Assembly: GCA_035288465.1 (NCBI GenBank) | Contig: DATEAH010000005.1 | Coordinates: forward strand, 131,636-195,635 | Reading direction: 5' to 3' | DNA: 64,000 nt | Source: Patescibacteria group bacterium | Lineage (GTDB): Bacteria > Patescibacteriota > UBA1384 > DATEAH01 | Shown: positions 1,112 to 63,916 of the stretch, one piece after another | How the letters are laid out: every line of letters begins with the position of its first letter | Position numbering within the stretch: the first letter of the stretch is position 1 | Made by a program: the position numbers and the translations under genes | The notes under the pieces: model-generated | Told to the model about the DNA's origin: nothing | What the model saw: only the letters and a program-made list of their open reading frames with translations | The model's database searches: none

Positions 1112-2026
1112 TTATTTATCATCAGGATTTTGGTTTTGATCTGGCTTTTTAACTGTCAAGTCCACAATCGTACCTTCGTGGAGCTCACCTTCGATTGGTT
1201 TTTCGGGGGTTTCGGGGGTTTCGGGGATATTTAAAACAGGTTCATTTTTATTTTCTGGAATTTTCGGAATTTGAAAATCAGGCGGGGCTGTTTTTGGAAT
1301 ATTTTCGGAAATCGGTTTTGATTCAGGTTCGATTGGGGCAGATTTGGGGGATAAATTTTCTGATTTTTCAGCACCTAAATTGGCAATTCCGCCGGGACGG
1401 CGCAAATCTTTATGATTAAAAACGCCGACAGCCCTCTCACCCAAACCCTCTGCAGTATCAATTGTTTTAAGTGCCACATTTCCAGATGGAGAAGAAATTA
1501 ATCTTTTATATTCAGAGGTTAATTTTTGGGTAAATTCGCGCGGGTGGGGAATATTGGTGAAAATAAAATTACGGGCAGTACCGGCGGTTTGAATTTCGAC
1601 ACAACCGAAATCAAGCATGGTTCCAAAAAAACCGGTCACCTTGGCCGAAACATCTTCAACGTGCAAAATATCTAATTCGTCAATGGTGCGATTAAAGAGA
1701 CCATTTTGATTAATATCAACGATTCGTTTATTGGTTAAAATGACGATGTCAAAATACAAATTGACAAAACCGAGTAAAAAGGCGGCGGAGATAAACAATA
1801 AATACATTGACGAAAATACAACCACAAAATTAATTATTGAACCTACAAAAAATTGCGGATAAAAACGAATGGAAATCATCAACAAAGCAAAGGGCACGAT
1901 GAGCATCGCGAAAATGATGATAAAAATTATTAAAAACATAAACCAATGTTTTCTGGTGAAAATTAAAACTTCTTCGTCCACGTCAGCATTAGGAAAAATT
2001 TTACGTAACCGATCTTGATCTTCCAT
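1112..2026 (-). CDS. membrane protein with YdbS/YdbT-like bacterial PH (bPH_2) domain and Pro/Glu/Thr-rich C-terminal tail
   Basis: two N-terminal TM helices followed by ...VILTNKRIVDINQNGLFNRTIDELDI... pattern typical of bPH_2; C-terminal PETPETPEKP repeats. Confidence 0.5.
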   Translation of the reverse strand: MEDQDRLRKIFPNADVDEEVLIFTRKHWFMFLIIFIIIFAMLIVPFALLMISIRFYPQFFVGSIINFVVVFSSMYLLFISAAFLLGFVNLYFDIVILTNKRIVDINQNGLFNRTIDELDILHVEDVSAKVTGFFGTMLDFGCVEIQTAGTARNFIFTNIPHPREFTQKLTSEYKRLISSPSGNVALKTIDTAEGLGERAVGVFNHKDLRRPGGIANLGAEKSENLSPKSAPIEPESKPISENIPKTAPPDFQIPKIPENKNEPVLNIPETPETPEKPIEGELHEGTIVDLTVKKPDQNQNPDDK

Positions 2027-2275
2027 TTAGCCACCTCTAAAAATTTGGGGGATAAATTCTTCGATCGACGGAAAACTGACGCTCCCCCATTTTAAACTCA
2101 ACATAATCGCTAATGAGAAAAAGATAATAATTCCGGTAACAACAATATAAGTGATCATCACTATCTTGGTCATATCACCACGAAAACCATATTTCCATAA
2201 ATGATATAAACCTAAGCCGGAAATAATAATAAAACCTAATAAAAATGCCAAATAAGCTAATAATAAAATAATCAT
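2027..2275 (-). CDS. small integral membrane protein, unknown function
   Basis: 82 aa, two hydrophobic helices, abuts upstream gene. Confidence 0.35.
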   Translation of the reverse strand: MIILLLAYLAFLLGFIIISGLGLYHLWKYGFRGDMTKIVMITYIVVTGIIIFFSLAIMLSLKWGSVSFPSIEEFIPQIFRGG

Positions 2276-2360
2276 AAGTTTGCCTTTGACTGTATCATAT
2301 CACAAAAAAGCTCAAAAATTAATGGCTAAATTAAAAAAAGAGCAAGTTTCTAAATTTTCC

Positions 2361-3360
2361 CTAAGTAGGAAACCTGCTCTGAAGGCTTGACAATTTATCG
2401 CCAAAAGCTTTGATGATATTGTCGCAAGTTAAAGCTTGAATTTGCTCCGGACTTAAACCTAAATCCTCGGGCAAAAAGCGTTCGACAAAATCTCGATAAA
2501 GATAAAGGGAAGGGATGCCAGACGGCGGATCTTGAGAAAATAGTTTTTCGCCAATGGCGTGAGGAGCATGGTCAGTTTCAACCCAATCGATTAAACCTGC
2601 TTGAAGGCATCTCCTAAGTCCTTCTACAACCGGCCAAACTCGCAAGGGAGGATTTACTTTGTAAATCAAACCATTGGCCTCTTTTTTCATAAATTCATTA
2701 GCCCACATTAAATAATGAGGAGTGACACCACAGGTAATTTTGATTTTGCCCCGAGCGTTATTAATCACATCAACTGATTCAGGGCAAGAAACATGACAAA
2801 TATGCAGGGTACCAGCAAAACCCGTCTCAATCGCGAATTTAATTTGGTCTTGAATAGATTCAATTTCAGCTTCTTTAGGTCTCGACCAAGAATGTGAAAT
2901 GGGGTTGGCGCGATTCCAAAGTTCGGGTTTCATTAAGTCTTCTTTCTCGCAATGCGCGGCTAAGACTCCCTTATACCCCAATTTGGTCAAAGTCTGATAA
3001 ACCTGATACTGTTCAGTGTGAGTGGTAACTGCTAATGGACCAACTGATCTGCCGGCAAACATTTTTAAACCTACGATTCGATGGCTAAAATGTCTTTGTC
3101 CATAACATTCAATAGCTTCTTTTATTTGTTCAGGATCCGCGGTGACTCCCATGTATAAAAAGTATCTTTGATGTTGATCGTTTGGGACAAGTTCCAAAAT
3201 ATCAATAACGTCAGGTTCGGAAATAATTGGTCTCTTTTTATTCGGCATATCAAATACCACATCAACACCCTGTTGGGTGGCTAATTCCAGACCATGCGCA
3301 ATCGTTTCTTTATGGGCTTCTTCTCTATCCCTTAAATGCTCGTGTGGATCGATTCTCATC
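2361..3360 (-). CDS. dihydroorotase-like cyclic amidohydrolase
   Basis: DPHEHLRD metal-binding motif near N-term, DHAPH motif near C-term; start moved to ATG at 3360 (MRIDPHEHL) which has an AGGAGG SD ~10 nt upstream, rather than ORF-track start 3407. Confidence 0.6.
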
Positions 3361-3444
3361 TGGTTTGTGCCTCCTGTGTGTTGAGTTGTTAATGTCCAGC
3401 TGTGCAATTATTATACTTTAAAAAAATCTTTTACTCAAGCAAAA

Positions 3445-3969
3445 TTAAGATTTATTTTTTAAACTATAAAAACAGCCGCAGTATTTTTGGCAATATAAAC
3501 CCAAATCATGAGCTTTTTGGTGACCTTGGCGAAATTGGCTAACAAAATCTCGATCAATAAATTCTAAATGATATTTTTGAGCTAATTCCCCACCGATTTG
3601 GCGAACTTTGTCTAAATTCTGATAAGGACTAACCAATAAAGTGGTGGTGAAATATTTATAGTTTTTCGCGGCCGCAATCTGGGCAGTTTTCTCTAAACGT
3701 AATTTATAGCACGCAAAACATCTTTCGGGTTTTTCGAGATTTTCGTTCGCCACAAGATGCTCTTCGGCTTCATATTTTGCCACCATGATTGGCAAATTAA
3801 TAATTTTGGCCAATTGCCTAACGGCTTTGAGTCTTTTTTGAAATTCTTTTTTGGGCTGAATATTGGGATTATAATAGAAACCTGTAACTTCAAAATCTTC
3901 AGCCCTTAATTTTTCCACCACCGAAATTGCGCAAGGCCCGCAACAAATATGAAGCAAAATTTTTTTCAT
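3445..3969 (-). CDS. queH: epoxyqueuosine reductase QueH (DUF208)
   Basis: 174 aa; LLHICCGPC N-terminal cysteine motif and conserved C-terminal Cys pattern of QueH. Confidence 0.75.
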   Translation of the reverse strand: MKKILLHICCGPCAISVVEKLRAEDFEVTGFYYNPNIQPKKEFQKRLKAVRQLAKIINLPIMVAKYEAEEHLVANENLEKPERCFACYKLRLEKTAQIAAAKNYKYFTTTLLVSPYQNLDKVRQIGGELAQKYHLEFIDRDFVSQFRQGHQKAHDLGLYCQKYCGCFYSLKNKS

Positions 3970-3970
3970 T

Positions 3971-5044
3971 TTATTTGAACAATTTTTTCTGACGACGGCT
4001 AATTTTTTCTTTTTGAGCTTTTTTGCTAACTTCTTGAGGACATTTAAAACCTAAATATTCAAAGGCTTTGCTAGTCGCCATACGGCCCTTGGGAGTTCGC
4101 TTTAAAAAGCCTAAACGCATTAAATATGGTTCATAGACTTCTTCAATGTTGGCAATATCTTCAGAAGAGGCGGCAGCTAATGTTTCCAAACCTACCGGTC
4201 CGCCTGAAAATTTTTTAATTAATATTTCTAATAATTTTCGATCAGCTTTATCCAAACCAATACTATCAATTTGGAGCATTTTTAAGGCTTTAAGACAAAT
4301 TTCTGGAGTGATTTTGCCTTGGTGCCTAACCTGGGCATAATCTCGGACACGGCGTAAAATTCGGTTGGCGATTCTAGGGGTCCTGCGGGCACTTTTGGCA
4401 ATTAATATGATTGAAGTATTATCAATTGGAATCCTTAAAATTTTAGCGGCGCGCTTTAAGATCCTTTTGACATCTTTGATTTTATAATAATCTAGCTTAA
4501 AAATTGCGCCAAACCGGTCGCGCAAAGGCGAAGAAATCCCGCCGATTTTAGTGGTGGCGCCAATGACGGTAAACTTGGGCAGTTCTAACCGCAAGGTTTT
4601 AGCAGATGGTCCTTTTCCTATTATTATATCTAAGGCATAATCTTCCATCGCCGGGTAAAGCAATTCTTCAATCAAACGACCAAGTCGATGGATTTCATCA
4701 ATAAACAAAATGTCAAAATCTGACAAACTGGTTAATATCGAAGCTAAATCTCCGGGCCGATCCAGAGTGGGACCCGAAGTAATTTTAATATTGGCAGACA
4801 TTTCATGCGCCATAATTTGCGCCATACTGGTTTTGCCAATTCCGGCTGGACCATATAAAAGAATATGCTCTAAAGGCTCTTTTCTTTTTCTAGCCGCCTC
4901 GAGCATAATTTTTAAATTTTCTTTAATATTGTCCTGTCCGGCAAATTGCGCTAAAGTGCTAGGTCTCAAAGATGAATCGGCCGGGATTTCATCGGGTTTT
5001 AATTTACCACTTACTAAACGTTTTTTTTCTTTTTTGATTGCCAT
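3971..5044 (-). CDS. ruvB: Holliday junction branch migration ATPase RuvB
   Basis: LYGPAGIGKTS Walker A, RuvB-like N-terminus LRPSTLAQFAGQD, AAA+ and winged-helix C-term. Confidence 0.9.
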   Translation of the reverse strand: MAIKKEKKRLVSGKLKPDEIPADSSLRPSTLAQFAGQDNIKENLKIMLEAARKRKEPLEHILLYGPAGIGKTSMAQIMAHEMSANIKITSGPTLDRPGDLASILTSLSDFDILFIDEIHRLGRLIEELLYPAMEDYALDIIIGKGPSAKTLRLELPKFTVIGATTKIGGISSPLRDRFGAIFKLDYYKIKDVKRILKRAAKILRIPIDNTSIILIAKSARRTPRIANRILRRVRDYAQVRHQGKITPEICLKALKMLQIDSIGLDKADRKLLEILIKKFSGGPVGLETLAAASSEDIANIEEVYEPYLMRLGFLKRTPKGRMATSKAFEYLGFKCPQEVSKKAQKEKISRRQKKLFK

Positions 5045-11022: not shown

Positions 11023-12083
11023 TTTAGCTTTCTATCCAAAACCTGCTTATATACTTTTTCATAATCATTAGTCATTTTTTGAATAGTAAAATTATCTTCA
11101 ACATGCTTTCGGCAAGCTCTTCGATCTATTTGACCAATTTTTTTGACTGCTTCTGCCATCGCATCAATATTTCCAGGCTCAACTAAAAACCCGGTTTTAC
11201 CATCAACAACGGTTTCAGATAATGCCCCGCGATTAAAAGTAACGACCGGCGCCCCACAAGCCATGGCTTCAACCGGCACTAAACCAAAGGGTTCGTCCCA
11301 AAAAATCGGATTTAAAAGACAAATTGCGTATTTTAATAATTTATTTTTTTCCTCAAAATCTGCTTCACCGACATAGCGGATCTGCGTGCCATCAATTAAG
11401 GGTTCTATTTCTTTTTTATAGTATTCAACATCGGCTTTTGATTCTTGATCTAATTTGGCTGCCATAATTAATTTCATTTTTAACTTTTTAGCCACCAAAA
11501 TCGCTTCCTTTGTACCTTTTTCGTAAGTTATTCGTCCCATCCAAAATAAATAGTCTTTGGGCTGATTTTTAAAGGCAAATTGATCAACTTCAACACCATT
11601 ATAAACCGTCGCAATATAATTTAAATCTTTTAAGGCACGTTGAGCATTAGAAATACTCACATATAAACTATCCCTAAATGTCTTGAGCAGTCTGGTTCTT
11701 TCAGGTGGATTTTCGGCGCGATCAATATTACCATGAAGGGTGTGAATAATTGGAACGTTGCTAATTTTGCTGAAAACTGAACTATAATTAACAGCGTGGC
11801 TATGAATAATATCAGCCTTATTTTTAATCGCATATTCAACAGCTTTAGCCACATTTGTTAAACTATCAGCATAGCTTGTCCAGGCAACCCCATCACGATA
11901 TAAGGCGCGCGGATAAACTGAAACTAATTTTGCTTTTGTAATTGAATCTCCAGTTGCAAATAAGGTGACATCGTGACCGCGTTTAACCAATTCTTCGGTT
12001 AAATTTGAAACAACTCTTTCCGCACCACCATATAAAGGTGGGGGAGTTCTTTCGCGCAAACTGGAAATAACGACAATTTTCAT
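11019..12083 (-). CDS. GT4-family glycosyltransferase (paralog A)
   Basis: 354 aa; N-term KIVVISSLRERTPPPLYGGAERVV and EPFGLVPVEAMACGAPVV (E-x7-E) GT4 motifs. Confidence 0.7.
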   Translation of the reverse strand: MKIVVISSLRERTPPPLYGGAERVVSNLTEELVKRGHDVTLFATGDSITKAKLVSVYPRALYRDGVAWTSYADSLTNVAKAVEYAIKNKADIIHSHAVNYSSVFSKISNVPIIHTLHGNIDRAENPPERTRLLKTFRDSLYVSISNAQRALKDLNYIATVYNGVEVDQFAFKNQPKDYLFWMGRITYEKGTKEAILVAKKLKMKLIMAAKLDQESKADVEYYKKEIEPLIDGTQIRYVGEADFEEKNKLLKYAICLLNPIFWDEPFGLVPVEAMACGAPVVTFNRGALSETVVDGKTGFLVEPGNIDAMAEAVKKIGQIDRRACRKHVEDNFTIQKMTNDYEKVYKQVLDRKLK

Positions 12084-13553: not shown

Positions 13554-14648
13554 TCAACTCCTTTTTTCCCTCGGAAAATTATTAATTATTTCAAGATATA
13601 CTTTTTCATAATCTGCAACCATCTTAGAAACTGAAAAATTTTCCATGACATGCTGACGGCAAACTTTTCGATCAATCTGGTCAATTTTTTTTAAAGTTTC
13701 AATTGCACCATCAACATCTTTTACTAAAAAACCGGTCTCGCCATCTTTGATTAATTCTGGCATTGAACCACGCTTGGTGGCAATTACAGGCGTACCAGTC
13801 GCCATGGATTCAACCGGCACTAAACCAAAAGGTTCGTCCCACTGAATTAAATTTAATAAAGCTTTGGCATTTCGCAATAATTTATTCTTCTGTTCGTGAT
13901 TTGCTTCGCCAAAATAAATGATTTGCTTATTATCAAAATGCGGCTCAACTTCTTGATGATAATATTCCATATATTCTGGGTTCATTTCGTCAATTTTGCC
14001 AGCCAAGATTAATTTTTGGCCAGTTTTTTTGGCCACTTGAATCGCTTCCCTGGGACCCTTGGATTCTGAAAATCTGCCCATCCAAAATAAATAATCTTCG
14101 GGCTGATCATTAAAATCAAATTTATCAACTTCGATGCCATTATAAACTGTGGCCACATAATTTAGATTAGGAATTTTTCGCTGAGCATTGCTAATGGTGA
14201 CCAAAGGATGCTCTCGATATTTTTCTAAAAAGATTTTTCGATTTGCTTTATCCGGTGTAGTTGGCATTTCAAAATGCATTGTTGAGACAATTGGAGTTTT
14301 TAAATACCGGGCAAAGGGCAAAACAAAATAGTCAACCCGGGTATTAAATTGGACATGAATAATATCAAATTCTTTTTCCATATCTAAAGCCTGGGTTAAA
14401 TTTAATAAAGGATATAAAAATTCATTCCAGCCAATACCCATTTCTCGTAAAGTTTTAGGGACGACCGAAACTAAACGTGCGGAGGTTTTAGAATTGCCAG
14501 AAGCAAAAACTGTCACTTTATGCCCATTTTTAACCAACCCTTCCGCGAGGTTGTAAACGACCAATTCTGTCCCACCATATTTTTCTGGCGGTACTTTTTC
14601 CCAAATAGTTGAAACAATAGCAATTTTCATTGCGAGGTTTCCTTCCAA
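13554..14648 (-). CDS. GT4-family glycosyltransferase (paralog B)
   Basis: 364 aa; paralogous to 11019..12083 (KIAIVSTIWEKVPPEKYGGTELVV; EPFGLVPVESMATGTPVI). Confidence 0.7.
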   Translation of the reverse strand: MEGNLAMKIAIVSTIWEKVPPEKYGGTELVVYNLAEGLVKNGHKVTVFASGNSKTSARLVSVVPKTLREMGIGWNEFLYPLLNLTQALDMEKEFDIIHVQFNTRVDYFVLPFARYLKTPIVSTMHFEMPTTPDKANRKIFLEKYREHPLVTISNAQRKIPNLNYVATVYNGIEVDKFDFNDQPEDYLFWMGRFSESKGPREAIQVAKKTGQKLILAGKIDEMNPEYMEYYHQEVEPHFDNKQIIYFGEANHEQKNKLLRNAKALLNLIQWDEPFGLVPVESMATGTPVIATKRGSMPELIKDGETGFLVKDVDGAIETLKKIDQIDRKVCRQHVMENFSVSKMVADYEKVYLEIINNFPREKRS

Positions 14649-28949: not shown

Positions 28950-28996
28950 TATAAATCTCCTCTAAGTTTAATTATTGGCTTTCGGCTCGAAATTTG

Positions 28997-29068
28997 TGGC
29001 TGGGGTGGGGCTCGAACCCACAACCTACAGCTTATGAGTCTGTTGCTCTACCATTGAGCTACCCAGCC
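28997..29068 (-). tRNA. tRNA-Met/Ile2 (anticodon CAT), elongator-type
   Basis: GGCTGGG...CCCAGCC acceptor, D-arm GCTCAATGGTAGAGC, loop CTCATAA, T-arm GTGGGTTCGAGCCCCAC. Confidence 0.8.
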
Positions 29069-29194: not shown

Positions 29195-29265
29195 TAGCGG
29201 GGCCTGGATTTGCACCAGGGTCTACTGCTTATGAGACAGTCGAGGTACTACTCCTCCACCCCGCA
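29195..29265 (-). tRNA. tRNA-Met (anticodon CAT), initiator-like
   Basis: 5' ...GCGGGGTGGAG resembles bacterial tRNA-fMet; position 1-72 mismatch; T-loop TGCAAATCC; anticodon loop CTCATAA. Confidence 0.7.
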
Positions 29266-29787: not shown

Positions 29788-31620
29788 TTATTTTTTTCGA
29801 GATGAGGCTTTTTTATTTTCTTGCCAGCCAACATACCAATAGTATACCCAAAAAGCGATTACTAAAGCAGCTAAAATTATGCCAATAATAAGTGGCCAAT
29901 TTGTGGGTGCCTCTTCGGTTGTTTTTTCGCCCTCAACTGTGCCTTCGTCTTCTAAGGGTGTCGGGGTTGGTTCAGCAACAGCGGGAGCAGGTTTAGTTTC
30001 AACCACTGCTGAAGCAATTTGGGGTTGTTGAGTTTCAGTTCCAACCCGGGTGACGCTGGCCGGCATATCTGGCGCAATTATAATTAATTTTGGAGTAGCA
30101 GAGATGGTAACTTCATTAGATTTATTACCGGCTAAATCAAAGGCAATAATTTTATAAATATAGGTCTTACCGCCAATGACGCTGGTATCTTTATAGAAAT
30201 TATCGGTTGTGTCTGCAATCCATTTAAAGGGACTACCGCTACGATAAATCATATAATATGCCGCATCTAAGTCATCAGCCCAATAAAGAGATATGTATCC
30301 TTCACCAGAAATAGCCAATAAATTTTGTGGTGCTTGCGGCGGAACATTATCCTCAATAGTTAAATCGGCGGTGCTTTGTGAGAGATTATTAGCTGAATCT
30401 AAAATATTAATTGTCAAACTATAAATCTGGTTCGTGTTATTTATTAGGTTTGGGTAAAAAACAAGAGAATAAATATTATCTCCAGCAGTTTGATCACCAT
30501 TGGTGCCATCGTCATAGAGCGACGAAATACCCAAACCGCTATCCACAGCCGTTAAATCAATATTGACACTCCCAATACTAATATTGTCAGTAATTTCAGC
30601 AGTAATTAAAACCGGCTGAGAACCATTACCTTTAACTGTATTGGGGGTAAGAATTATATTGGAAATTTCGGGTAAAACCGTATCAATATCAAGATTATTA
30701 CCAGAAGATTGGCCCACATCAGAAATATTTCCGGCAGGGTCGATTAAAGTAGCATCTAAAATTTCAACATTATCTGCTGAAAAATCACTTGCCAAGACCG
30801 TGTAGGTGGCAGAATAAGTGCCATCGCCATTATCTGTCCATGACAAAGTTTGGCCGTTAAAAGAACCATTAGCGGTTAGACCTGCTTCCAGATTTTCAGC
30901 CGTAATGGTAATTTGAATCTGACCACCAATTCCCAATAAGGCTGAACTGGGATTAAAGGTGATTTGGCTAATTTGAGGCGTGGTAATATCTAAAAAAACG
31001 GTCGCTGAATAATGCGGTGAATAACTATATCCTGAGCTAATAAATGTCCTAAATTGAACGTACACAATTCTTGGCCCGTCTGTGCCAGCAGCTAATGTCC
31101 AATTTCTAGTTGTCGAATACGCCTCAAAAACTGAAAAATGGATATCATCATTTGAAAATCTCATTTCATCGGGCGTCACGTCGTTTCGGCTGCCAGAAAT
31201 AGTTAAAACCACTTCCCTATTAATATCAGTGGCATAAGTGGCTCCGCCGTCAATCAAAATCGAACCCACCCAAGAAACTACCTGGGGTTGAATTTGCGAA
31301 GAGCTGGCTTTGACTGGCAGGGTTGATGAGATAGTTCGGGTCGGTTGGGTTGAGGCAGTAATTGATTTGATGGGTACGTCTTTAACTTTGGGTAAGGTCG
31401 GCTGGTTGTCGACATCTTTAACTTGCGGTAAAGTTTCAAAATCATCATTTGTTTGAGATTCATTTGTTAAATTCGCTTCAGAATTTTCCGATTGGGCAAG
31501 ATTTTTTACAGCCCCAATATTTTGTACCGCCGCTCTCGCAACCCCCACAAAAGTAAATTGGCTCATTAAGCTCAAAGCTAATAAATAAGATAATAATTTT
31601 TTCACCACTTCCTCCTTCAT
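29788..31620 (-). CDS. large cell-surface protein with Ig-like/fibronectin-like repeats and C-terminal TM anchor
   Basis: signal peptide MKEEVVKKLLSYLLALSLMS, beta-rich repeats, C-terminal WPLIIGIILAALVIAFWVYYWY; start trimmed relative to ORF-track 31710 because upstream is a structured leader. Confidence 0.5.
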   Translation of the reverse strand: MKEEVVKKLLSYLLALSLMSQFTFVGVARAAVQNIGAVKNLAQSENSEANLTNESQTNDDFETLPQVKDVDNQPTLPKVKDVPIKSITASTQPTRTISSTLPVKASSSQIQPQVVSWVGSILIDGGATYATDINREVVLTISGSRNDVTPDEMRFSNDDIHFSVFEAYSTTRNWTLAAGTDGPRIVYVQFRTFISSGYSYSPHYSATVFLDITTPQISQITFNPSSALLGIGGQIQITITAENLEAGLTANGSFNGQTLSWTDNGDGTYSATYTVLASDFSADNVEILDATLIDPAGNISDVGQSSGNNLDIDTVLPEISNIILTPNTVKGNGSQPVLITAEITDNISIGSVNIDLTAVDSGLGISSLYDDGTNGDQTAGDNIYSLVFYPNLINNTNQIYSLTINILDSANNLSQSTADLTIEDNVPPQAPQNLLAISGEGYISLYWADDLDAAYYMIYRSGSPFKWIADTTDNFYKDTSVIGGKTYIYKIIAFDLAGNKSNEVTISATPKLIIIAPDMPASVTRVGTETQQPQIASAVVETKPAPAVAEPTPTPLEDEGTVEGEKTTEEAPTNWPLIIGIILAALVIAFWVYYWYVGWQENKKASSRKK

Positions 31621-31984
31621 CTCGAGCTTAGTCGAGAGATTATTTTTAATTTTTAACCCGCCTTCGTCCCCCACTAACAGCCGGGGGCTTAGGCGAGGTT
31701 TTCGCTCCAACTTGGCAGAGCTTCAAAAACCACAAATCAATAAAAGCAACCTTGGCTGCTCAAACTGATTTGTGGTTGGTCTCACTATTTTGCACCCATA
31801 ATTCCAAGTGGCCGAATAAAGAATCATAGGTTAAAGTTAAACCACGAAATTTTTCAATCTCACCCTAAGACTGGTGTCCTAAGACGCAAAAAAAAGAGGT
31901 TTCCCCTCCCTTTATTATAAAACCTTTTTTACAATTTAATTGTATTATTTATATTCCTACTGTCAAGCCTGACTTATCCACAGA

Positions 31985-32707
31985 TTATTTAAAAACTAAT
32001 AAAAGGTTTTTAGTAAAAATTTTTCTAAAATTAGTGGCAGTGTCTAACCATGAATTTGCATATTTTTCCATAAATTTTCCCCAGATTTTAAATTCATTAA
32101 AATTATCACCTTGAGGATTGGTGGGGATAGAAGTATTTTGATTTAATACTGAACTTGAATGAGTTGGAACAGATTTGGTAATATCGCGATTGGCGGCTTG
32201 AGGAGCTGGACCAATTTGAGTCCCAAACATTTGCACCACCACCGTGGTATTAGAACCTGAAAATTCACCACTCATAACTGCAATTCCAATTTCATTAAAA
32301 TCAGGATCTAAAATATTGGCACGGTGAGAAGGGCTGTTCATCCAAGCCGCAAAAACGGTATTGGAATCTTCAAAATCAATCGCTAAGTTTTCGCCGGCAG
32401 TGCGGTAATTATAACCCACAAGCTTAAACCAATACCAAGAAGTTAAACCTTCGGGAGAGGCATGGGCAAAATAATCTTTGGCAAGCATGTCATTGGCTTT
32501 GGCGGCAGCGGCTTGGTTTAATTTTGAATTTATTGATAAGGGAGCAACCCTATTATCTAAGCGAGCCGAGTTAGTTAAACTAAAAATACTATTGGTGCTA
32601 ATTTGCGCCAAAACAGTTTGAGGAACTAAACCGACAATAATAAAAGAAATCGAGAGAGCAACGACTTTGAATTGGTTTAAAATTTTATTTTTGTTTTGAG
32701 AATTCAT
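31985..32707 (-). CDS. CAP/SCP (PR-1-like) domain secreted protein
   Basis: GENLA...AWMNSPSHRANIL CAP signature; signal peptide after internal Met (start placed at 32707). Confidence 0.6.
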   Translation of the reverse strand: MNSQNKNKILNQFKVVALSISFIIVGLVPQTVLAQISTNSIFSLTNSARLDNRVAPLSINSKLNQAAAAKANDMLAKDYFAHASPEGLTSWYWFKLVGYNYRTAGENLAIDFEDSNTVFAAWMNSPSHRANILDPDFNEIGIAVMSGEFSGSNTTVVVQMFGTQIGPAPQAANRDITKSVPTHSSSVLNQNTSIPTNPQGDNFNEFKIWGKFMEKYANSWLDTATNFRKIFTKNLLLVFK

Positions 32708-32954
32708 AAAAACCCTGTCCGGATCGGCCCTCAACCTTCCATTGGGGTTTTTAAACATTATATTATTATATCAAAAAAATTATCATTTGTCAACCCAAGA
32801 TGAATTATCGCAATTTTTAAATTTTTAATGATCACTAAAAACGAAGCTAAAATTAGGCTATCCCCAAGTTATCCACTTGCCAAAACCTTATTTTGCAAAT
32901 AAAATGCAATTGGGAATAGTTTGCAGAATATTAATTAACCTGTGGATAACTATA

Positions 32955-33367
32955 TGGATAACTTTCAAAATAAATACAAATGGCAAAAGCTGACTAACCA
33001 ACGCACGCAGATTTTGGAATTTTTACAAACGAATTTAAACCACCCCACGGCCGAAGAAATCCATCAAGCTATCAGGCCATATTTAGCCAGGCTAAGTTTA
33101 TCAACTATATATAGGAACCTGAGAAGCTTAGAATCAGAAGGAGTGGTTAGCTCAATTAAGACTCCGGATAGAAAAATTCATTTTGAACATGCTGGTGCTG
33201 ATCACGCCCATTTTTATTGCCTTTTTTGCCGAAAATTGATCCAACTGCCTCTAGCCGAAATTATTGACATTAAAAAACGCCTGGCGATTAAAAATTACCA
33301 GGTTCAAAAAGTTGATATTATTTTTGAAGGCATCTGCCCAGATTGTGTTTTAAAAAAACTTGAGTAA
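32955..33367 (+). CDS. fur: Fur-family metal-responsive transcriptional regulator
   Basis: winged-helix N-term, HAGADHAHFYCLFC and CPDC metal-site motifs. Confidence 0.75.
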
Positions 33368-33790
33368 ATTATTTTTTATTTTATAAGAATTGCAATGCCC
33401 CAATAAGCCCAGATAAGAAGACAAATTTTTATGATTAATCTTTTTAAACATCCTTTTTTGGGTTTTAGCTCTTAAGAGCCGATAATGTGGCAAAACCACA
33501 TAGCCCAAGAAATCTATACCTTGTCTTAATTTACGAATGATGATTTTGTTTGGATATAAATTCAAGCTGAGTTTTTTGTTTAAAAAATTTATAATAGGAT
33601 TTAATAACTTTATTAAGTTATCTCTGTCAGCGTCTAAAAACACAAAGTCATCGCAATAGCGAAGATAATACTTAATTTTCAAATAGTGCTTTATGAATTT
33701 ATCCAGCTCGCCAAGATAAATATTGGCGAAAAGTTGGGAGGTTAAATTGCCGATTGGAATTCCCCTTTTCCACCTTCCGCCAGCTGGCGG
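33350..33790 (-). pseudogene. N-terminally truncated reverse transcriptase, DGR-type (motif 4 IGNLTSQ)
   Basis: open frame gives ...RGIPIGNLTSQLFANIYL (motif 4 with [I]GxxxSQ, the DGR hallmark), YCDDFVFL (motif 5), GIDFLGY (motif 7); frame closed by a stop ~33790, so motifs 1-3 are missing. Confidence 0.55.
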
Positions 33791-33953
33791 AGTGGATTTT
33801 GTCCCACGAAAGTGGGATTATAGGTGCATCCCGCACTTAGCGAGAATTGTCCATATTTTAGCATAGCTCAGTTAAAAAGTTAAGACCAAAAACGAAAATT
33901 AGTTATTTTAAACTATTATAAACTTTTATGTTAAAATGAAATCAAGAGGGAAA

Positions 33954-35633
33954 ATGCTGAATAAAATTGCGAAAAATTTATTAAACTTTGTTTTTTTAGC
34001 GATTTTATTAATTTTACCTATCAAATCACATGCCCAAACAGAAGCGATTAGAAATCTTAACGCCGAAATTACAGTTGAAAAAACAGGTTTAGTCGATATT
34101 GTGGAAACAATTGACTATTATTTTCCTACTGCCAAACATGGCATTTATCGCTATATTCCAAATCGATTCAAAGAGAGCTCTGGCCGCAAATTCAAAACTG
34201 AGCTCAAAATTCTAAAAATTAAGAATGAAAAAGGGAAGTCTATCCCCTACACCACTAGTCAAAATGGCGATAATTTAGAAATTAAAATCGGTGATGCCAA
34301 CAAAACGGTTAATGGTGATTATCAATATCAAATTCATTATCAAATTTCTGGTGTAATCAATAGTTTTTCAGATCATGATGAGCTGTACTGGAATGTCACC
34401 GGCACTGGCTGGGAAGTACCAATTGAAAAAGCCCAAGCGCGAGTGGTTTTACCAGATGTGATAAATCCCGCCAGTCTTCAAGATCGCTGTTTCACTGGTT
34501 CACAAGGTGCCACAAATGAAAATTGTTCAAAAAGTATCAATCAAAATCTGGTCGATTTTTCAGCCAGCGGAAATTTAACCGTGGTGGTAGGCTGGGAAAA
34601 AGGGGTAGTCACAATCCCCGCTCGAGAATATGTTTTTTCCGGTTTTAATTCTTGGTGGTTAATGATAATTCCATTTGTGGTTTTTTTGCTCTTTTCCTAT
34701 ATATTATTAAAATTTGGCCGAGATCCCAAAAAAATCACCACCATTGCCCCGGAATTTTCGCCACCGCAAAATTTGACAATTCCGGAAATGGGCACGATTT
34801 TGGATGACCGCGTCGAACCTGCTGATTTGACTTCGCAAATAATTTTTTGGGCCACCAAAGGATATATTAAAATCAAAGAGGAAGAAAAAACCTTTTTGCG
34901 GGGCCAAAATTATACTTTAATCAAACTCAAGGATCTGCCCCAACATGCCAAATCTTTTGAAAAAATGTTTTTTGAAGCCTTATTTGAAAACCAACAAAAA
35001 GTGAAGCTTTCCGAACTTAAAGTAAAAACCACTTTTTATAAAAAGTGGCGAGAAATTTCACAAAAAATTTATACAGATTTAATGATCGAAAAGTATTTTC
35101 CCCAAAATCCAGATAAAATTCGAAAAAAATATCTTTGGATTGGCCTTGGCATTATCATTGCCGCCGCGATCGCGGGCCCGTTACTTTTATCATATACTTT
35201 GGGCATTGCCCTATTTCTAACTGCCGCAACCGTGATGATTTTTGGCTATTTTATGCCCAGAAAAACCTTAAAAGGTGTAGCGGCTTTGCAAAAAATATTG
35301 GGTTTTAAAGAATATATTACTAAGGTAGAAAAATATCGCACGCATTGGGCAGAAGATGAAAATATTTTCTTGGATTTTCTGCCATACGCAATTTTGTTTG
35401 GCGTGGGTGATAAATGGGCAAAAACTTTTAAAGATATTTACAAAGAACAACCCGACTGGTATGAGGGTAATTGGACGACTTTTAACACCATGGTTTTTAT
35501 AAGTAATTTAAATGGTTTTAATAGCACTTGGTCTGGGGCAGTTTCCGGAGCAGCTTCAGGTTCGTCTGGTTTTTCGGGTGGTGGTGGTTTTTCTGGCGGT
35601 GGTTTTGGCGGTGGCGGTGGCGGCAGCTGGTAA
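33954..35633 (+). CDS. DUF2207-family membrane protein with Gly-rich C-terminal tail
   Basis: N-terminal signal/anchor, extracellular domain, central TM helices, C-terminal SGFSGGGGFSGGGFGGGGGGSW; start at second ATG (AAGAGGG SD). Confidence 0.6.
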   Translation: MLNKIAKNLLNFVFLAILLILPIKSHAQTEAIRNLNAEITVEKTGLVDIVETIDYYFPTAKHGIYRYIPNRFKESSGRKFKTELKILKIKNEKGKSIPYTTSQNGDNLEIKIGDANKTVNGDYQYQIHYQISGVINSFSDHDELYWNVTGTGWEVPIEKAQARVVLPDVINPASLQDRCFTGSQGATNENCSKSINQNLVDFSASGNLTVVVGWEKGVVTIPAREYVFSGFNSWWLMIIPFVVFLLFSYILLKFGRDPKKITTIAPEFSPPQNLTIPEMGTILDDRVEPADLTSQIIFWATKGYIKIKEEEKTFLRGQNYTLIKLKDLPQHAKSFEKMFFEALFENQQKVKLSELKVKTTFYKKWREISQKIYTDLMIEKYFPQNPDKIRKKYLWIGLGIIIAAAIAGPLLLSYTLGIALFLTAATVMIFGYFMPRKTLKGVAALQKILGFKEYITKVEKYRTHWAEDENIFLDFLPYAILFGVGDKWAKTFKDIYKEQPDWYEGNWTTFNTMVFISNLNGFNSTWSGAVSGAASGSSGFSGGGGFSGGGFGGGGGGSW

Positions 35634-35650
35634 AATTGTAAACAAAAAAT

Positions 35651-35721
35651 GGGCCTGGCAGGGATCGAACCTGCGACATGACGCTTATAAGACGTCCGCT
35701 CTGCCACTGAGCTACAGGCCC
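35651..35721 (-). tRNA. tRNA-Ile (anticodon TAT)
   Basis: GGGCCTG/CAGGCCC acceptor, D-arm GCTCAGTGGCAGAGC, anticodon loop CTTATAA (UAU), T-arm GCAGGTTCGATCCCTGC, discriminator A. Confidence 0.7.
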
Positions 35722-37426: not shown

Positions 37427-37479
37427 GCCCCGTGAGGCTAAAAACACTTTTTTGCCCTGCGGGGATTTTTTTATAGGCT
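37427..37479 (+). terminator. terminator-like hairpin + T-run after the three-gene operon
   Basis: CCCCG...CGGGG stem followed by ATTTTTTTAT. Confidence 0.4.
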
Positions 37480-37533
37480 CGGTGCCCATAATCCCGCCTT
37501 CCAAGCGTTATGACAGGTAACTTTGCGGGGTGA
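37475..37533 (+). repeat. island-associated repeat copy 1 (TGCCCATAATCCCGC ... GCGGGGTGAT hairpin element)
   Basis: ~75% identical over ~90 bp to the copy at 40515-40612; shares the ATAATCCCGC...GCGGGAT hairpin with 45499-45546. Confidence 0.5.
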
Positions 37534-40514: not shown

Positions 40515-40612
40515 GTATCATTTTTTGCCCACACCTGTTAGGTTCTTTTTTTATGGGTTCGATGCCCATAATCCCGCATTCCTCGCGTCACGATAGGAAA
40601 ATCTGCGGGATA
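40515..40612 (+). repeat. island-associated repeat copy 2 (T-run + GGGTTCGATGCCCATAATCCCGC ... GCGGGAT)
   Basis: aligns with 37440-37535. Confidence 0.5.
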
Positions 40613-59603: not shown

Positions 59604-61559
59604 TTATTGAGTTAATTGAAAGGTATTTGCAGAATCAATTGACCAATCCCAGTCTTGACGATATCCTTGGCCATCTTCTCGCCAAATCCACCATTCGATT
59701 CCATCTACATCAATAAAAGCGCCGGGCGGTGCCCAAGACAAACCATTATGCCAAGTATCTCTGACGGCATAAAATTGATTATTACTTTGGTCCACATAAT
59801 AGCCAAAGGCAACCACCGAATGACCAACCACGCCATCAGGTGAATCTGCAAAGACACTGAACATTACCGGTCTGTCAGCATCAATTTCGCTTTTAAAATT
59901 ATCATAAGTATAATTATCGTAAAAAATATCCTTAAGTGTGGCAGTGTTCTGATAAGCTTCTTTTAATGGGCTTGGCAAGGCTGGATCATCCCAAGCGGCA
60001 TAATCATGCAAACCTGGCGCGGCCATTGAGGTGTATGTCAAATAACCAACTGTCTGCATAAAATCTGCTAATGATTGCGGATTATGACCCACATAAGTAT
60101 TTCCAGCATCGACAAAAGCCTGACTCGCCACCATCGCTTGAGTCCTTGCATTCCAAACATTGGCATCGCCAATAAATAGATTTTGATATTGCGAAAATTG
60201 GTCCCAATATGCAATCATATTTCCACCAGAAGTTGGGGTGCAACCATGATACCAAGGATAATCAGTCATACCAGATAGAACTTTTTTGTTTTGTCCTGAA
60301 CACCCTTCATCAACTAAACCCGAACAATTATCGTCAATACCATTTGAACAAGTCTCAGTGACTCCAGGATGTATCGAAGCGTTATTGTCATTGCAGTCAT
60401 TGCCCCCTTCACCAGCTGAGCCATAATTATCACTGTCAGCATCAATAATGGTATTTAAAACATACCATCTTTGAGAAGTAGTGCTTATTACTCTAACTAA
60501 TGAAATTTCGTCATGATTATCACCTTTAAAATCGCCGAGATACCAAACATCTCTCGAATTACCAAAATCCGCAGCCCAAATTTTTAAGTTTTCGAAAACA
60601 ACACCGTTTGAATAAAAAATATACCATCTTTTAACAATACTGCTCACGTTTCGAACCATGACCAAATCTGAACGATTGTCTTTATTGAAATCTCCCACAA
60701 ACCATGAGTCACCTAAATTGCCAAAATCCGGTGCCCAGATAGTGGGAGCTAAAAAACTGGTTCCAGACGATAGCGAAATATACCATCTTTGAACTCCAGC
60801 ACTGACATTTCGCACCAGGGCTAAATCTGAGCGGCTGTCAGCGTTGAAATCTCCCGCAAACCATTTATCGCCTAAATTGCCAAAGTCGGGAGCCCAAATA
60901 GCGGCGGTGCCAAAATCTGAACCTGATGATAAAATTGTATACCATTTTTGGGTGCCGGCGCTGATATTTTTTACCAAAGCTAAATCTGAGCGGCTATCAG
61001 CGTTGAAATCGCCGACAAACCATTTGTCACCTAAATTGCCAAAATCCGCTTCCCAAATTGCGGCCGCGCCAAATTCAGTACCGGTTGAGGGTAAAACATA
61101 CCAGCGTTGTGCGGCTGAGGAAACATTTCGCACTAAAGCTAAATCATCCTTGCCGTCCCCGGTAAAATCTCCCACAAACCAGGAATCACCTAAGTTGCCA
61201 AAATCCGCTTCCCAAATTGCGGCCGCGCCAAAACTTGTCCCAGTTGATAATTTAACATACCAACGTTGGGTAGAAATGGAAACATTTTTAACAAAAGCCA
61301 AATCATCTTTGCCGTCTCCGGAAAAATCACCCACAAACCAGAAATCTTGGGAGGTATTTGCCGAGTTTGACCAGACTGGAGCTGCTCCAGAAAGAGCAGA
61401 TGCCAAAGTGCCAGCTTCTAATTTTTGGACAATCCGAGGCAGGACAAATTTTAAACATTTATCCAAATATAAATATTCAATCGCAAAAACGACCACTAAA
61501 AGCAAAAAAATGATGGTTAATTTTGAGAAACGATTTGTCTTATTATCCTTGGATTTCAT
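59604..61559 (-). CDS. FG-GAP/VCBS-repeat protein with Cys-rich metal-binding-like linker and C-terminal papain-like (C39-like) cysteine peptidase domain
   Basis: six repeats of FGNLGD(S/K)WF(V/A)GDF(T/N)(G/A)D(G/S)(K/R)(D/S)DLALV(R/K)NVS; DNCS...CS Cys cluster; YHGCTPTSGGNMIAY (Cys) and VVGHSVVAFGYY (His). Confidence 0.55.
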   Translation of the reverse strand: MKSKDNKTNRFSKLTIIFLLLVVVFAIEYLYLDKCLKFVLPRIVQKLEAGTLASALSGAAPVWSNSANTSQDFWFVGDFSGDGKDDLAFVKNVSISTQRWYVKLSTGTSFGAAAIWEADFGNLGDSWFVGDFTGDGKDDLALVRNVSSAAQRWYVLPSTGTEFGAAAIWEADFGNLGDKWFVGDFNADSRSDLALVKNISAGTQKWYTILSSGSDFGTAAIWAPDFGNLGDKWFAGDFNADSRSDLALVRNVSAGVQRWYISLSSGTSFLAPTIWAPDFGNLGDSWFVGDFNKDNRSDLVMVRNVSSIVKRWYIFYSNGVVFENLKIWAADFGNSRDVWYLGDFKGDNHDEISLVRVISTTSQRWYVLNTIIDADSDNYGSAGEGGNDCNDNNASIHPGVTETCSNGIDDNCSGLVDEGCSGQNKKVLSGMTDYPWYHGCTPTSGGNMIAYWDQFSQYQNLFIGDANVWNARTQAMVASQAFVDAGNTYVGHNPQSLADFMQTVGYLTYTSMAAPGLHDYAAWDDPALPSPLKEAYQNTATLKDIFYDNYTYDNFKSEIDADRPVMFSVFADSPDGVVGHSVVAFGYYVDQSNNQFYAVRDTWHNGLSWAPPGAFIDVDGIEWWIWREDGQGYRQDWDWSIDSANTFQLTQ

Positions 61560-62398: not shown

Positions 62399-62504
62399 CG
62401 GCTGATTCCTCCCGGGGGGTCTGATAATGAATCAGTTAATTTATTATCTCAAATAAATTTGAAAAAATCAAGATTATATAGTAAAATAATGATATAAAAT
62501 TTGA

Positions 62505-62781
62505 TCCGGTGTAGCTCAGTGGTAGAGCAGCTCGCTGTATATCGTTGCAGCCCCCAAAGGTAACTTTGAGGTGAAAATCGGGTTAATTGTCGGGAAGCCC
62601 CGCTTAAGTGAGGTAATCCGCAGCCAAGCCCGCCGAAGAGGCGTGGAAGGTTCAGAGACTATACGCCCGATTCCGCACCCGTCAATTTGACGGACGGAAA
62701 TGAGATAGTCCACTCCTAAAGGTAACTTTAGGGTAAAGTGTAACGAGAAGGTCGCTGGTTCGAATCCAGCCACCGGAGCCA
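62505..62781 (+). tRNA. tRNA-Asn (anticodon GTT) interrupted by a ~202-nt intron in the anticodon loop; CCA encoded
   Basis: 5' exon TCCGGTGTAGCTCAGTGGTAGAGCAGCTCGCTGT, 3' exon TAACGAGAAGGTCGCTGGTTCGAATCCAGCCACCGGAGCCA; spliced loop CTGTTAA; closely resembles E. coli tRNA-Asn. Confidence 0.7.
62539..62740 (+). ncRNA. group-I-like intron within tRNA-Asn (between anticodon-loop positions 35/36)
   Basis: 5' exon ends in U pairing with G of an intron GCAG guide-like sequence (U.G); intron ends in G; contains AGAGACTATAC P7-like element; no ORF. Confidence 0.55.
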
Positions 62782-63061
62782 AATCAAAACATCTCAATTT
62801 TATGAGAAATTTTGATTTGTTTTGGCAAGGGCGAGAACCCATGGCGTAAAACATCGTCAAATAAAAAAGTGACATTTTAGCAAAAAGTTTAAAGAATTAA
62901 AACATTTTTGTATCGAGACGGGCTTTAGCCCTTTGAATCGCCTCATCGGCGATCCAGCGAAGAGGTGAATCCCTGCCCCGGAGCCACGAAAAATGACTCA
63001 GCCATAAAATGACTCAGCCACGCTTCGCTGTCTCGTAGCGATAGAAAGGACGCAAATAATC

Positions 63062-63916
63062 ATGCCCAACCCAGAAGAAGAACAGCCATATCTTACTCCA
63101 AAAGAAGTCGCCCGCTTTGATCCCTATGGAGTTAGAAAACAAGCTTTAGCCAAAGAAGCTGAGTCTTTAGAATCCCAAACCCCAGAACCAACTCCAGAAG
63201 AAGCAGTTGAAAGACCAGATATTATTGAAGCTTCTGAGATTATGAAAGATGACTTTTTTGGTCCAGAAGAAATAGGGAAAGCCTTTCAAGTAGAACTAGA
63301 TCCAAATGAAATCCCGGCTCAGCCCTTCTCAAGAGAAGAACTCAAACACTTTCAACAAGAAGGATATTTTCTCTCCCTTAGAATTGATCATGATAAAGAT
63401 GGTAAGCCTTTAACTATTCAACAGCTTAAATCTCTCTATGAACTAGACCCCAAAGATCAAGCTGTCAGAATCTTCTATCAACAAGATTGGTATGAAAAAC
63501 CAGAAAACTCTGATCCTTTCTACACCACCCAAATCCCTAAAGTCCAATGGGCTTTAACTAAAAAAGAAATCCTGCCTGATTCAACCTCTAAAACTCATCA
63601 AGATCAAGAAACCCTCTTGAACCAATATACTCAACAACAATCTCCTCACTTAGAATCAGATCATACTATCCAAAGAAGAGAAGCCGTAGACATCGCCTAT
63701 GATCTAGCATTAGCCTATTTATCCAAAGGTCAAAAACAACTCCCTACAAGATATGATTGGTCTAAAACCCAACTTACTCAAGGGGCGGTTTCCGGCTTCT
63801 TTGCTCCTCTTGGCCACTTTGATGCGAGGGGTTTCGTTGTTCATGCGGTTCGAACTGGGGATTCTGATGGCGATTTGGGGGTTTGCCCCTCGGTAGTTTC
63901 TGAAATTGAGACTTGA
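63062..63916 (+). CDS. hypothetical acidic protein (284 aa)
   Basis: long ORF, Glu/Pro-rich N-term, no recognised domain; mid-GC. Confidence 0.45.
   Translation: MPNPEEEQPYLTPKEVARFDPYGVRKQALAKEAESLESQTPEPTPEEAVERPDIIEASEIMKDDFFGPEEIGKAFQVELDPNEIPAQPFSREELKHFQQEGYFLSLRIDHDKDGKPLTIQQLKSLYELDPKDQAVRIFYQQDWYEKPENSDPFYTTQIPKVQWALTKKEILPDSTSKTHQDQETLLNQYTQQQSPHLESDHTIQRREAVDIAYDLALAYLSKGQKQLPTRYDWSKTQLTQGAVSGFFAPLGHFDARGFVVHAVRTGDSDGDLGVCPSVVSEIET

Follow-up and report, generated by a model that had tools for sequence, protein, structure and literature searches.

A probable truncated reverse transcriptase of a diversity-generating retroelement beside fur in a Patescibacteria bacterium, and repeat-borne frame changes in its relatives

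A 64,000-nucleotide stretch of the genome of a Patescibacteria group bacterium (assembly GCA_035288465.1, contig DATEAH010000005.1, positions 131,636 to 195,635), here called the window, holds beside the fur gene a minus-strand open frame that corresponds to the second half of a reverse transcriptase (RT) and no more. A reading of the letters alone, the sequence-only reading, had taken this frame for the decayed remnant of a diversity-generating retroelement (DGR), which implied that a system of template repeat (TR) and variable region (VR) had once operated here and that a target gene might survive nearby. The locus raises the question of whether the fragment is indeed a DGR-type RT, how it came to lack its first half, and what is left of the element around it. 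Our answer is that minus-strand positions 33350-33817 probably represent a non-functional, cleanly 5'-truncated RT remnant of the DGR clade found in the Candidate Phyla Radiation (CPR), a reading that is built from sequence comparison and to which we give a probability of roughly 0.82.

The open frame runs on the minus strand from 33817 to 33353 and comprises 155 codons, 137 of them RT-homologous, rather than the 147 first assigned to it; a stop codon follows at 33350-33352. Its translation includes SHFRGTKSTPPAGGRWKRGIPIGNLTSQLFANIYLGELDKFIKHYLKIKYYLRYCDDFVFLD, LRQGIDFLGYVV and LRQGIDFLGYVVLPHYRLLRAKTQKRM. The presence of RT motifs 4 to 7 on this strand, as proposed from the letters, was borne out: the frame encodes motif 4 (GIPIGNLTSQLFANIYL; IGNLTSQ), motif 5 (YCDD), motif 6, motif 7 (GIDFLGY) and the thumb. 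The Pfam family RVT_1 was matched in the second half of its profile only, over positions 116-204 of 205, with 30.9 bits (cut-off 29.6) and an E-value of 2.7e-7. Profile hidden Markov models (HMMs) were built from 74 N-terminal halves, 86 C-terminal halves and 64 Avd proteins of related elements and run on the six-frame translation of the window, and the C-half model gave a single match, at 33817-33353, with an E-value of 4.8e-61, which chance would not produce. The C-terminal half of the RT proper, from motif 4 through the thumb to the stop, occupies 33350-33766 on the minus strand, and the remaining 33767-33817 is what is left of the linker between motifs 3 and 4, still in the RT frame. Among 41 columns that are conserved at 90% or more in the family, the fragment departs at one (H to Y, in motif 6), the same number as the median family member. 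The description of the fragment as a decayed copy was half right in this respect, as the gene is truncated and parts of it are lost whereas the retained half is not decayed.

Motif 4 has the form [I/L/V]GxxxSQ in DGR RTs and QGxxxSP in group II RTs. In the printed alignments it reads IGNLTSQ in the fragment, IGSLTSQ in bRT, the RT of the Bordetella phage BPP-1 element, and QGGVISP in the group II chain. The best match among solved structures was chain 8ub7_A (residues 178-284 of 328, E 4.8e-18); the best group II RT reached 4.4e-9. The matched segment is, over the part tested, 100% identical to brt of BPP-1, the prototype DGR. The fragment and bRT (PDB 8ub7 series) share an IGxLTSQ motif 4 followed by YxDD and GI(N/D)FLGY. 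They differ in that the window copy has no equivalent of bRT residues 1-172, no avd and no TR, and in that avd lies on the opposite strand in the CPR clade, whose RTs also have a variable insert, 2-44 amino acids long, at about bRT residues 161-172. By the form of its motif 4 and its closeness to bRT the fragment belongs to the DGR subfamily of RTs, as the sequence-only reading had proposed.

A protein search returned 1419 homologs, the best of them 60-74% identical and most of them from Patescibacteria/CPR. The DNA of the relatives was examined in 80 metagenome loci and several named contigs, in which the RT halves were located with N- and C-half probes taken from one reconstructed RT; both halves lie side by side in 84 loci. 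TR/VR pairs were present in 35 of the 48 loci of at least 4 kb, with 4-14 adenine-specific mismatches per 50-nt window and almost no others. Some 450-550 nt separate the TR from the RT that follows it, and the VR precedes the TR by a similar distance; in about 75 of roughly 90 loci the RT is directly preceded by a bAvd gene on the other strand, which gives in the closest relatives the order target/VR, TR, opposite-strand avd, RT. The closest full-length relative, L096, has its VR at 1606-1645, its TR at 2073-2112 (11 mismatches at A only, 0 others), bAvd at 2161-2502 on the minus strand and an intact RT of 351 amino acids that matches bRT over residues 5-160 and 173-284 (E 1.4e-40). The comparison with intact elements that the sequence-only reading had called for places the fragment among RTs that sit in TR/VR/avd cassettes. 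One survey assigns 90% of the CPR DGRs in its set to a variant of architecture B named 'B3' (Wu et al., 2018; PMC5758913), and the layout of the relatives is consistent with B3. Compared with such cassettes, the window retains just the 3' 468 nt of the RT. One further DGR-like cassette was observed on an 807-kb CPR contig (L001, 4374-6516), between dnaN and recF and beside dnaA; it comprises a VR-like target end, bAvd and a frame-shifted RT with (GA)11, while its TR is gone and roughly 450 nt matching the TR-holding part of L096 are missing.

The other parts of such a cassette were searched for in the window. The N-terminal half of the RT, with motifs 1 to 3, was not found there by tblastn with six near-full-length relatives, and the best N-half HMM score had an E-value of 3. 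For avd, likewise not found in the window, the best E-values were 0.67 by tblastn and 0.26 by the Avd HMM. The self-similarity search for a TR/VR pair was run on the whole window as a diagonal scan with A as a wildcard, which was written here and validated by the 35 positive related loci, and yielded no pair; plain blastn self-comparison had been dropped, as it missed TR/VR pairs even in loci later shown to have them. The window thus holds no complete RT domain, no TR/VR pair and no avd beside the RT. The frame is ended upstream by a TAA at 33818-33820, and not by a stop around 33790 as first stated. Ahead of motif 4 neither a start codon nor a ribosome-binding context is present in the translation or the table of open reading frames (ORFs), and the sole in-frame start, the TTG at 33682, lies past motif 4 and opens an ORF of 110 amino acids.

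The truncation junction (33818-33935) consists of 118 nt without RT homology. When this segment was compared with the 3' ends of the N-halves of 14 relatives, local alignment scores against shuffles lay between z -1.8 and +1.0. A hint from MAFFT that 33818-33935 might be a decayed motif-3 region was rejected on a local alignment z of about 0. Beyond the junction lies the gene of a DUF2207 membrane protein (33936-35633, plus strand; Pfam DUF2207 and DUF2207_C), which occupies the place where the N-half of the RT, avd and the TR would be expected. On the other side the fur gene (32942-33367, plus strand; Pfam FUR, E 3e-24) is convergent with the RT remnant, and the 3' ends of the two overlap by 18 nt. 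The same 5369 nt, from fur through the fragment and the junction into DUF2207, recur with 100% identity in L003, a JGI assembly made independently from another sample, and because L003 is identical across the junction, the junction is not an assembly error. The claim that motifs 1 to 3 are missing and the RT is 5'-truncated was upheld by these results, and no full-length frame could be restored, which makes this a truncation rather than a frameshift or a misassembly. As far as the coding sequence tells, an active RT and mutagenic retrohoming are ruled out from this locus, because motifs 1 to 3 are gone and there is no start before motif 4.

The break lies in the linker between motif 3 (...SF) and motif 4 (GxPxGN), at about bRT residues 161-172. 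The residual linker of the window contains two GC-rich hairpins. The first, TCCCAC-TTTC-GTGGGA, lies at 33802-33817, and RT homology ends at its base, that is, at its 5' edge; the second, CCAC(T)CCGCC-AGCT-GGCGG(AA)GGTGG, lies at 33770-33795 and has a palindromic core, CCGCCAGCTGGCGG, at 33777-33790. The RNA of 33755-33860 (106 nt) had a predicted folding energy of -39.6 kcal/mol (z -3.9). A homologous hairpin, TCCCGC-TTTC-GCGGGA, read as SRFRG, stands in the same place and frame in L096 and L097, and between these loci and the window the stem shows a compensatory pair change from CCCGC/GCGGG to CCCAC/GTGGG. The idea that the hairpins are a multi-copy miniature inverted-repeat transposable element of this genome was rejected, as both are unique in the window. 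Across the 84 loci the linker measures 6-132 nt, and in the AlphaFold model of homolog P0004 the linker insert has a pLDDT of 45-58 between segments at 88-98; in this model the linker looks like a tolerant, disordered loop. Palindromic elements of Rickettsia have reportedly inserted in frame into protein genes, as Ogata and colleagues are said to have described in 2000. The likeness to these lies in GC-rich hairpins that stand in frame in AT-rich coding sequence, in a predicted disordered loop; the difference is that the window hairpins are unique and not multi-copy. Some linkers of relatives hold other insertions. In L097 (300-470) GC-rich palindromes are nested, one within the loop of another, and stop codons split the RT ORF. 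The motif-3/4 linker of L017 is the exact insertion site of a 3.4-kb element (1595-5000) whose 18-bp terminal inverted repeats (ATATACTTAATTACCCTA) are perfect. Outside the linker, the P0027 cluster (Candidatus Nealsonbacteria, PIP21459.1) has a second in-frame insert, SAKGGCASGA, between RT motifs 4 and 5 besides a tract of RE repeats.

The upstream part of the RT may have been removed by a single deletion or rearrangement with one end at the base of the GC-rich linker hairpin. Its removal, along with that of avd and the TR, would have been clean and also recent, because the surviving half is as conserved as in intact family members.

Two surface proteins close to the fragment had been named as candidate targets, the Ig-like protein at 29788-31710 and the CAP-domain protein at 31985-32758. 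Both were rejected, since neither contains a VR or a TR and neither is similar to the upstream proteins of 26 related cassettes. The sequence-only reading had expected any surviving target or TR nearby; there is no TR in the window, and a gene of a DGR target family was found 29 kb from the fragment. This gene (63062-63916, plus strand) encodes 284 amino acids and is homologous to the VR-bearing target of L036 (E 2e-15). Seven homologs (P0242-P0248, 61-88% identity) have a common scaffold, GA.SG.FA.LG.FDA.GF.V.A..P..S....LGVCPSVVS, whose fixed residues are separated by hypervariable positions. Compared with the 92%-identical L101, the 96 nt at 63782-63877 differ at 25 sites, of which 21 fall on codon positions 1-2; over the other 759 nt of the gene there are 54 such sites, 31 at position 3. 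The A content of the 96 nt is 9%, against 38% in the remainder of the gene. To judge from these nucleotide patterns, the segment bears the signature of a DGR variable region, A-poor and without a TR. The VR is identical in the window and in four other assemblies (L092-L095), and the gene would be a remote target, by now static. For this gene neither a TR nor an avd nor an RT was found in the window, in the 2.6 kb past the window end (in L093) or downstream of the gene in L101 and L102; a weak tblastn match of the N-half downstream of the gene in L093 (E 0.083) was not supported by the N-half HMM. Past the gene, three of the four other assemblies break off after at most 135 nt, which may mark strain heterogeneity. 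The target protein of L096 is also 284 amino acids long; it is not homologous to the product of 63062-63916 and the equal length is coincidental. The VR gene may be a former remote target of the element at 33350-33817, now frozen, and the link between the two is plausible, circumstantial and unproven.

Several points weigh against a resident element that lost its first half in place. Only one syntenic relative was found, L098, with amino acid identities of 68% for fur and about 52% for DUF2207 (the P0123 locus, tried as a second comparison, is not syntenic), and between fur and DUF2207 it has an ORF of 173 amino acids for a membrane protein and no RT, avd, TR or other DGR part. The RT piece may have come already truncated. 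The intact frame and the conserved catalytic residues could mean that the fragment is kept for some use, and the N-half, or a second intact DGR, may lie in the genome outside the 64 kb searched. A former TR/VR system at this very place is something that we infer rather than observe at the site, and that part of the sequence-only reading stands between the L098 locus without a DGR on one side and the VR-bearing gene 29 kb away on the other.

The strongest of the alternatives takes up the first of these points, namely that the fragment never belonged to a resident DGR here and arrived truncated, by illegitimate recombination or horizontal transfer, in a variable gap between fur and DUF2207. It would account for the membrane protein gene of L098 and for the absence of other DGR parts adjoining the fragment, and the GC content of the fragment is slightly under that of the neighbouring genes (0.28-0.30 against 0.33-0.40). 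However, a single relative at about 52-68% protein identity says little on the recent ancestor, and the VR gene found in this part of the genome, of the fitting target class, indicates that the lineage had DGR activity. We consider this history unlikely, though by no means remote, and either history, resident DGR or imported piece, leaves the same dead remnant. Far less probable is that the RT was split or rearranged rather than lost, with its N-half, avd and TR elsewhere, for example through an inversion breakpoint in the linker, and with the halves or another intact DGR serving the VR at 63782-63877. The undecayed state of the retained half and the real VR gene in the window would fit such an arrangement, as could strain heterogeneity where the three assemblies stop. 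N-half and Avd are nevertheless absent from the 64 kb and from the 2.6 kb past its end, the fragment has neither start codon nor ribosome-binding context ahead of motif 4, and an identical VR in five assemblies is what would be expected with diversification stopped; we know of no split DGR RT.

DGR loci often break assemblies at their TR/VR repeats, and a chimeric join inside the RT gene by assembly or binning was considered on that ground, but with the identity of L003 through the junction and the fur-DUF2207 adjacency recurring in L098 it is hardly credible. Equally remote is an origin from a group II intron, retron or DRT/Abi RT. Group II RT/maturase, Drt3a, Drt2 and retron St85 do head the NCBIfam matches (E 1e-14 to 8e-11), but their scores are far under the cut-offs (54 against 300 bits for TIGR04416, at 54.3, and 44 against 200, 43 against 390 and 42 against 235; the retron, Drt2, Drt3 and Drt4 models as a whole score 16.6-44.3 against 200-450), bRT leads the solved-structure matches by nine orders of magnitude, the 60-74% identical homologs stand in TR/VR/avd cassettes, and Rfam found no group II intron RNA and no retron RNA in the window. 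As a discriminator between DGR and group II RTs NCBIfam was uninformative, the DGR RT family being absent among the matches. An HMM assignment to group II or retron RTs, which the sequence-only reading had named as the result that would overturn it, was not obtained, and the truncated remnant of a CPR-type DGR remains the preferred reading.

In the relatives, the same linker is a place of frame changes. The two RT halves are in different frames in 14 of the 84 genes. Twelve of these have a dinucleotide repeat of 8-21 units in the linker, (GA)n or, in L084 and L085, (CT)n; the other two are L017, with its 3.4-kb insertion, and L035, with a G9 run and GC-rich hairpins. All 12 repeat-bearing genes become uninterrupted ORFs when one repeat unit is added or removed, and the restored ORFs measure 318-358 amino acids in the ten genes for which the contig holds the whole N-terminal half. 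Five more tract-bearing genes are in frame, and the ratio of 12:5 is the one predicted for random tract lengths. Dinucleotide repeats at least 6 units long number 19 in 550 kb of the relatives' loci, of which 17 lie in the linker, two just upstream of RT starts and none elsewhere; the window contains no such repeat. The two outside the linker, (TG)7 in L066 (955-968) and (GT)12 in L082 (2965-2988), lie 20-55 nt upstream of the RT start. The shifted genes are as conserved as those in frame (0-3 deviations at the 41 columns), and six of them retain diversified TR/VR pairs.

Tract length also varies between close strains and sets the frame. L084 and L085 are 99.65% identical over 6.6 kb and have (CT)16 and (CT)21, respectively. 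In a strain comparison made within 90%-identity protein clusters, the P0062 cluster contained identical C-halves joined to an ON form of 348 amino acids (...SFNS-RERE-YLPAG...) and to both OFF frames (...KVSI-RERERE-... and ...KFQF-ERERE-...), and other clusters contained (RE)3, (RE)4 and (RE)5. Among the top 120 cluster representatives, 38 have an RE tract and just 3 of these are in frame with motifs 2-3, a ratio that the choice of representatives may bias. The tract suggests, by its distribution, repeated origin or long maintenance, because the RTs with a tract are spread over a rough neighbour-joining tree, their flanks differ and two repeat motifs occur. As a control, 80 more distant DGR RT loci on viral contigs (390 kb) had all halves in frame and no such repeat. 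In the OFF alleles of L001, L051, L067 and L068, viewed by eye, there was no consistent in-frame start after the tract, and a separate translation of the C-half as part of a split enzyme was unsupported in these four loci.

The best reading of the repeats, taken from gene sequences, would be slipped-strand ON/OFF switching of the RT. We have little doubt that repeat-length polymorphism with frame switching is real. Whether the tract is a selected, reversible switch is evenly poised against recurrent neutral inactivation in an insertion-tolerant loop, a rival to which L001 lends support, as its RT is frame-shifted and its TR is lost as well. Similar dinucleotide or homopolymer contingency loci underlie phase variation of genes in Helicobacter, Neisseria, Haemophilus and Campylobacter (PMC11868660, PMC3315296). 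The CPR relatives resemble these in that a (GA)n or (CT)n repeat inside the ORF sets the downstream frame, varies in length between near-identical strains, occurs in all three frames and leaves OFF forms one unit from ON. They differ in that the switched gene is a DGR RT, the hypermutation engine, and not a surface or restriction-modification gene, in that the hosts are CPR bacteria, and in that the window itself has no tract. Repeat-driven or phase-variable DGR RTs were not mentioned in the searchable papers or DGR surveys, a search outside which many subscription papers lie. In its widest form the proposal is that the linker serves as a dedicated hypermutable switch across the CPR DGR clade, in which tracts and sometimes G-runs, hairpins and mobile insertions toggle the frame, DGR mutagenesis is phase-variable and the window break is a terminal by-product; we would give this an even chance. 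That linker instability caused the break in the window is a tentative suggestion, somewhat less probable. The lead on repeat control concerns the relatives and not the window locus, where no long simple-sequence repeat lies inside the ORF.

Some further features of the window were recorded. A group I intron at 62451-62732 on the plus strand (Rfam, 81 bits, E 4e-19) interrupts a tRNA gene at about 62420-62800, which ARAGORN misses on the raw window and identifies as tRNA-Leu after in-silico excision of the intron. The minus-strand gene at 59604-61559 encodes a 651-amino-acid protein with FG-GAP repeats, a MopE metal-binding motif and a Peptidase_C39-like domain, and contains five 159-nt tandem repeats (60518-61256) that are mutually 65-75% identical. 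A tRNA-Ile with anticodon UAU lies at 35650-35721 (minus strand), and two adjacent tRNAs with anticodon CAU lie at 28996-29068 and 29195-29265 (minus strand). A 64-nt direct repeat (TTTTTTTATAGGCTCGGTGCCCATAATCCCGCC) occurs at 37466-37529 and 40546-40609, 3 kb apart and 81% identical, and the segments 11049-11626 and 13596-14167, 2.5 kb apart and 72-76% identical, are probably tandem paralogous genes.

As a DGR-type RT remnant the window fragment is ordinary, and there is no working DGR in the window. Recognizing the locus as a dead DGR piece, and the nearby surface proteins as non-targets, avoids a false annotation, while the orphaned real VR at 63782-63877 would provide a natural example of a frozen DGR target. 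In the CPR DGR RTs the tract leaves some two-thirds of the genes, intact in other respects, out of frame. Phase variation, if that is what this is, would account for the way in which bacteria with very small genomes keep down the cost of targeted hypermutation, and surveys that demand an intact RT ORF would undercount CPR DGRs. A hypermutation engine would then be governed by a second hypermutable element, one that is stochastic and repeat-driven.

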